Of a DNA stretch of 26,892 bases, positions 21,845 to 24,800 are shown one piece after another; position 1 is the first letter of the stretch; each line of letters opens with the position of its first letter. The notes beneath the pieces are model-generated. The model worked only from the letters and a program-made list of their open reading frames with translations, was not told the origin of the DNA and did not search any database. This stretch comes from a virus (taxonomy: Duplodnaviria; Heunggongvirae; Uroviricota; Caudoviricetes): the IMG/VR virus record IMGVR_UViG_2534682096_000007; one strand, given 5' to 3'. Position numbers and translations under genes: made by a program.

Positions 21845-24800
21845 ATGGGTAAAGGCAGCAGTAAGGGGCATACTCCGCGCGAAGCGAAGGACAACCTGAA
21901 GTCCACGCAGTTGCTGAGTGTGATCGATGCCATCAGCGAAGGGCCGGTTGAAGGTCCGGTGGATGGATTAAAAAGCGTGCTGCTGAACAGTACGCCGGTG
22001 CTGGACAGTGAGGGGAATACCAATATATCCGGCGTCACGGTGGTGTTCCGGGCCGGTGAGCAGGAGCAGACACCGCCGGAGGGATTTGAATCCTCCGGCT
22101 CCGAGACGGTGCTGGGTACGGAAGTGAAATATGACACGCCGATCACCCGGACCATCACGTCGGCAAACATTGACCGTCTGCGCTTTACCTTCGGTGTGCA
22201 GGCACTGGTGGAAACCACCTCAAAGGGGGACAGGAATCCATCGGAAGTCCGCCTGCTGGTTCAGATACAGCGTAACGGTGGCTGGGTGACGGAAAAAGAC
22301 ATCACCATTAAGGGCAAAACCACCTCGCAGTATCTGGCCTCGGTGGTGGTGGATAACCTGCCGCCGCGCCCGTTTAATATCCGGATGCGCAGGATGACGC
22401 CGGACAGCACCACAGACCAGCTGCAGAACAAAACGCTCTGGTCGTCATACACCGAAATCATCGATGTGAAACAGTGCTACCCGAACACGGCACTGGTCGG
22501 CGTGCAGGTGGACTCGGAGCAGTTCGGCAGCCAGCAGGTGAGCCGTAATTATCATCTTCGCGGGCGCATTCTGCAGGTGCCGTCGAACTATAACCCGCAG
22601 ACGCGGCAATACAGCGGTATCTGGGACGGAACGTTTAAGCCAGCATACAGCAACAACATGGCCTGGTGTCTGTGGGATATGCTGACCCATCCGCGCTACG
22701 GCATGGGGAAACGTCTTGGTGCAGCGGATGTGGATAAATGGGCGCTGTATGTCATCGGCCAGTACTGCGACCAGTCGGTGCCGGATGGCTTTGGCGGCAC
22801 GGAGCCGCGCATCACCTGTAATGCCTACCTGACCACACAGCGCAAGGCGTGGGATGTGCTCAGTGATTTCTGCTCGGCGATGCGCTGTATGCCGGTATGG
22901 AACGGGCAGACGCTGACGTTCGTGCAGGACCGACCGTCGGATAAGGTGTGGACCTATAACCGCAGTAATGTGGTGATGCCGGATGATGGCGCGCCGTTCC
23001 GCTACAGCTTCAGCGCCCTGAAGGACCGCCATAATGCCGTTGAGGTGAACTGGATTGACCCGAACAACGGCTGGGAGACGGCGACAGAGCTTGTTGAAGA
23101 TACGCAGGCCATTGCCCGTTACGGTCGTAACGTCACGAAGATGGATGCCTTTGGCTGTACCAGCCGGGGGCAGGCACACCGCGCCGGGCTGTGGCTGATT
23201 AAAACGGAACTGCTGGAGACGCAGACCGTGGACTTCAGCGTGGGTGCTGAAGGGCTTCGCCATGTACCGGGCGATGTCATTGAAATCTGCGATGATGACT
23301 ATGCCGGTATCAGCACCGGCGGGCGCGTGCTGGCGGTGAACAGCCAGACCCGGACGCTGACGCTCGACCGTGAAATCACGCTGCCATCCTCCGGTACCAC
23401 GCTGATAAGCCTGGTTGACGGCAGGGAATCCGGTCAGCGTGGAGGTCCAGTCCGTCACCGACGGCGTGAAGGTGAAAGTGAGCCGTGTTCCTGACGGCGT
23501 TGCGAATACAGCGTGTGGGGGCTGAAGCTGCCGACGCTGCGCCAGCGCCTGTTCCGCTGCGTGAGTATCCGTGAGAACGATGACGGCACGTATGCCATCA
23601 CCGCCGTGCAGCATGTACCGGAAAAAGAGGCCATCGTGGATAACGGGGCGCACTTTGACGGCGACCAGAGCGGCACGGTGAATGGTGTCACGCCGCCAGC
23701 AGTGCAGCACCTGACCGCCGAAGTCACTGCAGACAGCGGGGAATATCAGGTGCTGGCGCGATGGGACACACCGAAGGTGGTGAAGGGCGTGAGCTTCCTG
23801 CTTCGCCTGACCGTAACAGCGGACGACGGCAGTGAGCGGCTGGTCAGCACGGCCCGGACGACGGAAACCACATACCGCTTCACGCAACTGGCGCTGGGAC
23901 GGTACACGCTGACAGTCCGGGCGGTAAATGCGTGGGGACAGCAGGGCGATCCGGCGTCGGTATCGTTCCGGATTGCCGCACCGGCAGCACCGTCGCGGAT
24001 TGAGCTGACGCCGGGCTATTTTCAGATAACCGCCACGCCGCATCTTGCCGTTTATGACCCGACGGTACAGTTTGAGTTCTGGTTCTCGGAAAAGCGGATT
24101 GCGGATATCAGGCAGATTGAAACCGCAGCCCGCTACCTTGGCTCGGCGCTGTACTGGATAGCCGCCAGTATCAATATCAAACCGGGCCATGATTATTACT
24201 TTTATATCCGCAGTGTGAATACTGTTGGCAAATCGGCATTCGTGGAGGCCGTCGGTCGGGCGAGCGATGATGCGGAAGGTTACCTGGATTTTTTCAAAGG
24301 CCAGATAACCGAATCCCATCTCGGTAAAGAGCTGCTGGAAAAAGTTGATCTGACGGAGGATAACGCCAGCAGACTGGATGAGTTTTCGAAAGAGTGGAAG
24401 GACGCTAACGAGCAATGAAATCACGCAGACCGTCAATAAAAAAATGGAAGACCAGAGTGCGGCAATCCAGCAGATACAGAAAGTTCAGGTTGATACAAAT
24501 AATAACCTGAACAGCATGTGGGCCGTGAAACTGCAGCAGATGAAGGACGGACGCCTTTATATTGCGGGTATCGGTGCCGGTATTGAGAACACCCCTGACG
24601 GCATGCAGAGTCAGGTGCTTCTGGCTGCTGACCGGATTGCGATGATTAATCCTGCGAATGGCAACACAAAGCCGATGTTTGTTGGTCAGGGCGATCAGAT
24701 ATTCATGAACGACGTGTTCCTGAAACGCCTGACGGCTCCGACCATTACCAGCGGCGGTAATCCTCCGGCATTTTCCCTGACACCGGACGGGCGGCTGACG

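Follow-up and report, generated by a model that had tools for sequence, protein, structure and literature searches.

Gene J and its neighbours on the contig

The window, that is, the whole stretch of 26,892 nt that was analysed, is the complete draft contig AQAK01000071.1 of Escherichia coli P0304777.14 (draft assembly GCA_000358265.2). It starts with an IS3 transposase fragment (positions 1-473) and encodes the tape measure protein, M, L, K, I, the fragments of J, Ail/Lom and the N-terminus of the side tail fibre, in this order. Across the 20.8 kb of the backbone (474-21312), it shows one indel, an intergenic one, against its relative E200139. The P0304777 series was obtained from HiSeq2000 paired-end libraries with the Celera Assembler, and the isolates from this patient have been described as clonal (PMC4462620).

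As deposited, gene J is distributed over three ORFs, 21845-23494 (549 aa), 23513-24418 (301 aa) and 24378-25328 (316 aa), the exact proteins of which are known only from this contig. At the DNA level J is 95% identical to the intact gene of phage vB_EcoS-640R1. Over the fragments, the Pfam families FNIII-A_GpJ, Phage-tail_3, Ig_J, Ig_J_second, Phage_Tail_Tip and Ig_GpJ_C follow one another in the same order as in the J proteins of lambda and ATCC 11775. This domain set, together with the L-K-I-J-lom-stf gene order, corroborates the lambda-type identity assigned to J in the original prediction. Lambda gpJ (NP_040600.1, 1132 aa; PDB 8IYK and related structures) shares the gene position and all six domains, but in the window the gene is broken into three ORFs: a single frame of ~1132-1160 codons is interrupted by stops at 23492-23494 and 24416-24418, whereas the complete J genes compared (13 of 13) are single ORFs encoding 1132-1160 aa. 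The stops, and the indels relative to homologues, are read directly, so that chance is not at issue, and the deposited J is either a pseudogene or an erroneous sequence. The features of the region are collected in Table 1.

Table 1. Features of the J region, with positions in the window.
Feature	Position	Strand	Description
Gene J, lambda-type tail-tip/host-specificity	21845..25328	+	Split into three ORFs
First two frame changes	23424..23503	+	Three one-base deletions: two at 23424-23426, one at 23503
Short-form block	24301..24410	+	110 nt, where long-form genes have a block of 103 nt
Junction	24410..24412	+	Short-form identity up to 24411, long-form from 24411; <=1 nt common
Long-form 3' part of J	24411..25328	+	Extra linker, Phage_Tail_Tip and C-terminal receptor-binding domain; self-consistent frame
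Upstream J frame stop TGA	24416..24418	+	5 nt past the junction
A7 homopolymer	24438..24444	+	AAT AAA AAA ATG = N K K M, in frame
Receptor-binding end of J (Ig_GpJ_C, PF12421)	24825..25328	+	Residues 186-316 of the 316-aa ORF
lom (Ail/Lom outer-membrane protein gene)	25396..25995	+	Ail/Lom Pfam match

Two natural forms of J and the join between them

J exists in two natural forms, a long one of 1159 aa and a short, lambda-like one of 1132 aa, the blocks of which were present in 3539 and 1931, respectively, of 5426 complete E. coli genomes. The long form has a linker between Ig_J_second and Phage_Tail_Tip that is 27 aa longer, with the latter domain starting at residue 872 instead of 845 as in the short form. 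In 10 of 10 other genomes with the same tape-measure backbone, J was intact, either with 1132 aa or with 1159/1160 aa. The linker difference of ~27 aa is a widespread two-form polymorphism, and both forms occur on one prophage backbone.

The original prediction described a third frame change in J together with an extra segment of roughly 30 codons. The frame change stands: the upstream frame ends at TGA 24416-24418, while the lambda-like continuation is open from 24354, following a TGA at 24351-24353, with its first ATG at 24378 and its end at 25328. The resulting ORF (316 aa) carries MWAVK...YIAGIG... as had been noted. In a MAFFT alignment with lambda J, the window has 91 extra bases at 24401-24491 (30 codons plus one base). 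The additional length relative to lambda is thus real, but it is not an insertion specific to this gene: it belongs to the canonical 1159-aa form, which in E. coli is commoner than that of lambda; moreover, the TLT quoted as the beginning of the insert is short-form DNA read out of frame and not part of an extra segment.

Alignment to intact J homologues, the check proposed with the prediction, placed the length change at 24301-24410. This block matches annotated intact gpJ genes at 100%, and the window coincides with the short-form J of E200139 over 24251-24411; the block has 6 mismatches to lambda itself and 0 to other short-form J genes, and it is from 24411 that the window departs from lambda and takes on the long form. 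In the sibling isolate P0304777.12, the interval between the same exact anchors measures 103 nt and is of the long form. The lesion consists of a swap of 110 for 103 nt, by which a short-form block comes to stand in front of a long-form 3' half and, owing to the difference of 7 nt, the reading frame moves by +1.

From 24411 to 25328 the window is of the same form as the long gpJ proteins of ATCC 11775 (WP_000515772.1) and vB_EcoS-640R1 (URC10086.1), with 33-35 mismatches in 917 nt against long-form J genes and none against the clonal sibling. The extra linker residues followed by MWAVKLQQM... are present (24411-24515), and many J genes of E. coli match 24411-24520 at 99.1% identity. In contrast to the long-form genes, the window has the short-form block where their 103-nt block (...EIGKTHLAQELWTQIDNGQLAPDLAEIRTSITNV) would be; at the protein level, the long-form block upstream of the extra linker (...GEIGKTHLAQELWTQIDNGQLAPDLAEIRTSIT[ND]V) is absent in the window, and the sibling has one.

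Each match to 24330-24520, whether from E. coli or from phages, breaks at query position 82, equivalent to 24411, where microhomology amounts to 1 nt only. The join is not at a homologous position, being ~91 nt away from it by protein alignment; counted linearly, its distance to the last anchor that the two forms share is nearly equal in each, as would be expected from read placement by coordinate rather than from homology-driven recombination. A resemblance between ATAAATGGAA in the short form and ATAAAAAAATGGAA in the long form (24436-24449) was considered, but it is located 25 nt off the junction and does not explain the join.

The junction reads AAGGACGCTAACGAGCAATGAAATCAC, as against GACGCTAACGATAAATGGAATGC where a canonical short form continues and ATTACGAATGTCAGCAATGAAATC at the canonical long-form join. 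It was detected in none of the 5426 complete E. coli genomes or 50,697 phage records. A degenerate pattern with 0-30 nt between the two halves, which does match the window itself, retrieved no other junction from the GTDB species representatives and IMG/VR, and the exact 27-mer was absent from JGI metagenomes. A natural hybrid with a short-form left and a long-form right half, adjusted by a 1-bp insertion or a 2-bp deletion, was likewise found, in frame or out of frame, in none of the E. coli, phage, GTDB, IMG/VR and JGI searches. Within the 90% protein clusters of the three J ORFs, all the members reaching further upstream were of the canonical long form.

Sibling assemblies and the origin of the junction

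Contigs of two sibling isolates were reached by exact look-ups of neighbouring proteins, with I leading to P0304777.9 and Lom to P0304777.12 (contig AQAI01000015.1). No second contig carries a protein identical to K, and the tape measure protein, with 859 blocks, is too widespread for siblings to be picked out by it. The exact Lom protein was found only on AQAK01000071.1 and AQAI01000015.1, and lom belongs to the long-form J-lom-stf segment, as in P0304777.12. The two contigs are 100% identical over the 1,876 nt of 24411-26286, followed by 5 mismatches in 26287-26548, and in the sibling 24411-25328 lies inside a continuous ORF of 613 aa with canonical long-form sequence. The refuting evidence named with the original prediction, an assembly error that restores the frame, is largely, if indirectly, supplied by P0304777.12, which combines the same downstream DNA with the long-form block and a J that is in frame over this region. 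When the sibling block was swapped in and the three bases deleted further upstream were restored, a single ORF of 1159 aa was obtained, in which 1140 of 1160 ungapped positions, the stop included, agree with J of ATCC 11775.

The latter three bases correspond to the two earlier lesions, evidenced by comparison with lambda J as -2 nt at ~23424-23426 and -1 nt at 23503, and the change at the junction is indeed the third in the gene. The stretch holding them otherwise matches thousands of intact J genes; 271 of its 274 bases are the same as in the best E. coli matches and the sole differences are the three gaps, which are placed at, or adjoining, sites that vary among J alleles. As these deletions are shared with P0304777.12, they could be real in the clone. 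The sibling drafts show many more lesions of this kind. J of P0304777.12 carries 41 one-base deletions, 28 of them at columns variable among 14 intact J genes (background 12%; Fisher p = 3e-17), and in P0304777.9 there are ~30 one-base deletions within gene L and the contig breaks off 365 nt into J. The location of the deletions, mostly at sites variable among J alleles, fits with merged reads from several J copies.

Based on these sequence comparisons, the third frame change is probably the product of a chimeric or collapsed assembly and not a mutation. This interpretation is favoured by the heavy load of consensus errors at allele-variable sites of J in the sibling drafts, as well as by the healthy backbone at 474-21312 and the intact J in all ten genomes with related backbones. 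The clone P0304777 appears to contain at least three lambdoid prophages with L-K-I-J genes ~96-99% identical, of which one would encode a short J (1132 aa) and another a long J (1159 aa). In the Illumina/Celera draft, these copies may have been collapsed and cross-joined, so that the contig would track one prophage backbone through conserved J, go on in short-form sequence for 110 nt, roughly a read length, and then resume in the long-form copy at 103 nt, almost equally far past the last anchor common to both. The +1 shift would stem from the difference of 7 nt, with the TGA 5 nt later. The junction was presumably made at the layout or the consensus step of the assembler, and the real genome would encode one intact short J and one J that is long over the break region. 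An intact short-form 3' half is expected elsewhere in the P0304777.14 genome; no contig of this strain carrying it was recovered, which counts against the artefact.

Collapsed-repeat or chimeric short-read contigs resemble the window in that near-identical copies of tail genes are apparent, contigs end at repeats, deletions cluster at allele-variable sites and the join is unique to one assembly. The window differs in that the sequences joined share almost nothing, which a simple mis-join by overlap or k-mer would not usually show. An overlap-based assembler needs a bridge to connect unrelated sequences, and here <=1 nt is common to both; besides, a canonical short-form 3' half at >200x coverage would normally have been followed by the assembler. 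The exact match over 24411-26286 with 5 mismatches thereafter also fits a real gene-conversion tract, and the occurrence of the three earlier deletions in P0304777.12 likewise speaks against an artefact.

A real junction, which is unlikely, would mean that the long-form 3' part of J-lom-stf from a co-resident prophage was copied or recombined into this one, either in the clone or in a single colony, with homologous resolution in stf and an illegitimate join inside the non-homologous linker block, leaving J dead in a prophage under decay. Both forms of J plausibly co-exist in the clone, the exact identity to the sibling over 1,876 nt with mismatches from 26287 has the look of a bounded conversion tract, and the contig passes over the join without Ns. 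A further lesion would have been costless, as the earlier deletions, also found in P0304777.12, already cut J at 549 aa, and relatives have J interrupted in other ways, e.g., by an IS3 insertion in E200139. Against this, the ample flanking homology would have allowed an in-frame crossover, J is intact on 10 of 10 related backbones and no more than 1 nt is common at the join. The searches of E. coli, phage, GTDB, IMG/VR and JGI data gave no match to it, it was not recovered in the sibling assemblies seen, and the same gene is riddled with evident consensus artefacts in those assemblies. For a single colony from a clonal in-patient population, an illegitimate event of its own would also be very rare a priori. 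The specific scenario in which two co-resident lambdoid prophages in the clonal ETEC of one patient recombined very recently, with ~1.9 kb of J-lom-stf being copied, is considered quite unlikely; if true, it would illustrate how homology-anchored illegitimate recombination reshapes, and in this case kills, a host-range gene.

Two other explanations merit scarcely any credence. One of them attributes the frame change to a one-base length error or slippage at the A7 run. The homopolymer pointed out in the original prediction does exist, although one position upstream of where it had been placed (24439-24445), and it is only 20 nt downstream of the stop. However, it lies past the TGA and within a gap-free alignment with intact long-form J, in which its length is the same (AATAAGAAACTG in vB_EcoS-640R1), and it is identical to the copy of P0304777.12, which is in frame (NKKM); the +7 nt difference is confined to 24301-24410. 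The alignments, with no length difference at the run, refute slippage, and A7 is not a lesion. The other explanation, just as improbable, is that J is functional despite the break, either by a +1 ribosomal frameshift within 24354-24418 or as separate polypeptides. The frames do overlap by 65 nt and the TTTT in GAG TTT TCG (24383-24386) would allow re-pairing of tRNA-Phe, but in thousands of cases J is one ORF encoding 1132 or 1159 aa, the junction occurs on one draft contig only, the product would have a scrambled linker and J has already stopped at 23492-23494. Neither the shift site nor the overlap is conserved, as no homologue has two frames at the break, and a programmed frameshift was rejected.

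The case serves mainly as a caution. Where E. coli strains with multiple lambdoid prophages have been drafted from short reads, their J genes can be chimeric and rich in frameshifts, and the reads or sibling assemblies should be consulted before pseudogenes, "insertions" or host ranges are deduced from such contigs. If the junction were real, it would represent one more decayed prophage gene.

The receptor-binding end of J

The C-terminal divergence from lambda J reported in the original prediction is real but begins earlier, at ~24825 instead of 24870, where the mismatches to lambda per 100-nt bin climb from 12 to 36-47. As had been proposed, this end was compared with J proteins of known receptor, and it differs from lambda and is nearer to the OmpC-using A8. 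The last 167 aa show 45% identity to lambda and 62% to A8 gpJ (PDB 9wca), and the 45% identity to gpJ residues ~964-1132 sets this region apart from a LamB-specific (lambda-type) domain. A8 gpJ is a chimera in which lambda gpJ has received its C-terminus from the J of a natural E. coli prophage, and it uses OmpC and not LamB (PDB 9wca/9wcb; Brodel et al., 2024, PMC11338833). Among solved structures it is the nearest to the receptor-binding end in the window (E = 5e-120), with which it shares the C-terminal tail. This likeness supports the idea that the J type of the window does not use LamB, though an identity of 62% is too low for the specificity itself to be transferred. In the linker the two proteins differ, since A8 gpJ has that of the lambda short form while the window has the long-form residues.

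Origin of the contig and layout of J

Exact matching of the 316-aa ORF identified the window as the entire contig AQAK01000071.1 (26,892 bp) of the NCBI draft assembly GCA_000358265.2, from Escherichia coli P0304777.14. The isolates of the study, those of this patient included, were colonies from ETEC patients at the ICDDR,B, Dhaka; they were read on Illumina HiSeq2000 from paired-end libraries (300-bp insert) and assembled with Celera Assembler at a coverage >200x (Sahl et al. 2015, PMC4462620). Since the mixed populations in that study came from two patients, P0299917 and P0299438, the P0304777 isolates are among the clonal sets. 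At 1-473 lies the 3'-terminal part of a transposase gene of the IS3 family (NCBIfam transpos_IS3, E = 2e-44, profile positions 242-369 out of 369), meaning that the contig begins at a repeat boundary; in most related prophages the match to the window begins only at 474.

The tail module is that of a lambdoid prophage, in the order tape measure, M, L, K, I, J, lom and the start of stf. J, the lambda-type tail-tip and host-specificity gene, is distributed over three ORFs. The frame change originally predicted in this gene is present in the deposited sequence, one frame ending at TGA 24416-24418 and another, which has a TGA at 24351-24353, therefore being open from 24354. Aligned with lambda J, the window is short of 2 nt near 23424-23426 and of 1 nt at 23503, and carries 91 additional nt that were placed at 24401-24491.

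Reading frames and early frame changes of J (window coordinates)
Feature	Position	Description
J ORF 1	21845-23494	549 aa
J ORF 2	23513-24418	301 aa; ends at TGA 24416-24418
J ORF 3	24378-25328	316 aa
First two frame changes in J	23424-23426, 23503	three one-base deletions

Two forms of J and the junction at 24411

Intact J genes occur in two sharply distinct forms in the stretch that follows YLDFFKG. The short form, found in lambda and many prophages, has 1132 aa, and the long form has 1159 or 1160 aa, with a block after YLDFFKG that includes EIGKTHLAQELWTQIDNGQLAPDLAEIRTSIT[ND]. The form-specific stretch is the linker between the Pfam domains Ig_J_second (ending at residue 818) and Phage_Tail_Tip, which starts at residue 845 in lambda vs 872 in the long form, so that the linker measures 26 vs 53 residues, 27 more in the long form; none of the 13 complete J genes in the comparison had an intermediate length. 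A 110-nt block of the short form is present in 1931 and a 103-nt block of the long form in 3539 of 5426 complete E. coli genomes. Ten other genomes encode exactly the tape-measure protein of the window, six with an intact 1132-aa J and four with an intact 1159- or 1160-aa J, which indicates that both forms are natural on this backbone. The long linker is a known, very common J allele, and the insertion of about 30 codons noticed earlier is a genuine extra segment relative to lambda J (91 nt), though one not peculiar to this gene.

The window switches from one form to the other. Positions 24251-24411 are identical to the short-form J of the related E200139 prophage, while from 24411 the sequence is long-form: many E. 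coli J genes match 24411-24520 at 99.1% identity, and downstream of 24520 there are 0-7 mismatches per 100 nt to the long-form J of ATCC 11775. With 24330-24520 as query, all E. coli and phage matches were interrupted at 24411 and none of the records spanned 80% of the query. The junction was not found elsewhere in the 5426 complete E. coli genomes, phage records, GTDB species representatives, IMG/VR or JGI metagenomes. Comparison with AQAI01000015.1, a contig of the sibling isolate P0304777.12, located the lesion as a block replacement bounded by exact-match anchors, up to 24300 and from 24411. The sequence enclosed by these anchors is 110 nt of short form in the window vs 103 nt of long form in the sibling, a difference of +7 nt that shifts the frame by +1 and brings a TGA 5 nt past the join. 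At most one base is common to both sides of the join. Counted from the left anchor, the join falls at nearly the same linear offset in the two forms, yet off the homologous position: in the protein alignment the short-form ...KDAN pairs with ...VDTN of the long form, which lies about 91 nt beyond, and the window therefore holds the short and the long version of a homologous segment one after the other.

Two other candidates were discarded. The A7 run exists (at 24438-24444, one base from the position first given), but it plays no part, lying downstream of the join in sequence that matches intact genes with no gap; programmed frameshifting was rejected for lack of conservation.

Sibling isolates and the origin of the join

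In the collection, the Lom protein of the window occurs on one other contig only, AQAI01000015.1, which is 100% identical to the window over 24411-26286 (1,876 nt) and whose J is unbroken across the junction region (613-aa ORF). Upstream of J this contig is unlike the window, with a 191-aa I protein and a 112-aa ORF as in ATCC 11775, and looks like another prophage. Swapping the 110-nt block in silico for the 103 nt of the sibling was by itself sufficient to make 23513-25328 a single ORF; when the three deleted bases were also restored, the repaired J (3,480 nt) became one ORF of 1159 aa, identical to the J of ATCC 11775 at 1140 of 1160 ungapped positions, stop counted.

The assemblies of the siblings are themselves error-prone in these genes. 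The J of AQAI01000015.1 displays 41 one-base deletions vs window 22459-23537 (contig 2108-3149), 28 of them at columns variable among 14 intact J genes (background 12%; Fisher p = 3e-17), and most of the remainder adjoin such columns. In AQAS01000029.1, from P0304777.9, which shares its I protein with the window but not its tape measure (857 aa here), gene L carries about 30 one-base deletions vs the window and is in three pieces (contig 4597-5256, window 19779-20465); this contig stops 365 nt into J. One-base deletions packed this densely at allele-variable sites do not have the look of real mutations; they are consistent with a consensus derived from reads of several copies of the gene mixed together. 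The bases observed at the deleted sites suggest that the clone has at least three J haplotypes (window-like, ATCC 11775-like and E200139-like), and therefore at least three lambdoid prophages.

Altogether, a chimeric or collapsed assembly is the best account of the frame change and a probable one, supported by the allele switch, the block swap, the in-frame sibling with identical downstream DNA, the unique junction and the error-prone assemblies in exactly these genes. The contig would track the conserved part of J common to several copies, enter short-form-specific sequence for about one read length and then pass to a long-form copy at nearly the same layout coordinate. We infer that the join was made by the assembler, although an overlap assembler should normally have followed a real short-form continuation, which counts against this explanation. 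Alternatively, the join could be real, about 1.9 kb of J-lom-stf having been copied from a long-form prophage with one homologous and one illegitimate end. Five sites in the start of stf (26287-26548) differ from AQAI01000015.1 right after the 1,876 identical bases, and these could mark the end of such a conversion tract as well as another copy switch. Nevertheless, a real join is unlikely: flanking homology would have permitted a normal in-frame crossover, microhomology at the join is almost nil, the junction is found nowhere else, and an event of this kind within a single colony of a clonal population is presumably very rare. The frame change is thus in the deposited sequence but most probably absent from the bacterium itself; if it is in the bacterium, it is an ordinary private prophage pseudogene.

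The remaining prophage and the receptor-binding end

Between 474 and ~20,000 the window and the E200139 prophage share ~99.9% identity, with 12 mismatches over 19.5 kb and a single intergenic indel, and every morphogenesis gene is intact. From 20,049, inside gene L, divergence from E200139 rises to ~4%, and there the sibling contigs also begin to resemble the window; a stretch of gene I (21312-21539) could not be aligned to E200139, and no other contig in the full protein index has the K protein (20472-21215). The problems are thus limited to the multi-copy L-K-I-J zone, where the change at 20049-21539 marks either the edge of a mosaic segment or the point at which the collapsed region begins. 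Within 23330-23600, 271 of 274 positions match thousands of J genes, the sole differences being the three one-base deletions of the first two frame changes. The P0304777.12 contig has these deletions too (AQAI01000015.1 ~3040-3130), and they represent either an artefact that recurs with this mixture of copies or real changes in one J copy.

The divergence of the C-terminus from lambda J was borne out: the last 167 aa are only 45% identical to gpJ of lambda, which uses LamB. The closest solved relative of this end is A8 gpJ (PDB 9wca/9wcb; 62% identity), an identity too low for the receptor of A8 to be carried over to the window. A8 is a fusion, at residue 964, of lambda gpJ with the C-terminal part of a J from a natural E. 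coli prophage, and it uses OmpC, not LamB (Brodel et al. 2024, PMC11338833). Based on these identities, a putative receptor specificity other than that of lambda is reasonable.

The E200139 prophage, the closest relative in a complete genome, adjoins ydfW, flxA, ydfV and relBE, and its annotated genes include essD, ydfR, rrrQ, rzpQ, cspI, ynfN and gnsB (compared with window 596-6000). These are genes of the K-12 cryptic prophage Qin, and on this basis the window prophage would seem to be a more complete relative of Qin that has kept its tail genes. An IS3-family element breaks the J of the E200139 prophage close to the 3' end (E200139 28355-29532), which is an independent, real route of J inactivation in this prophage lineage.
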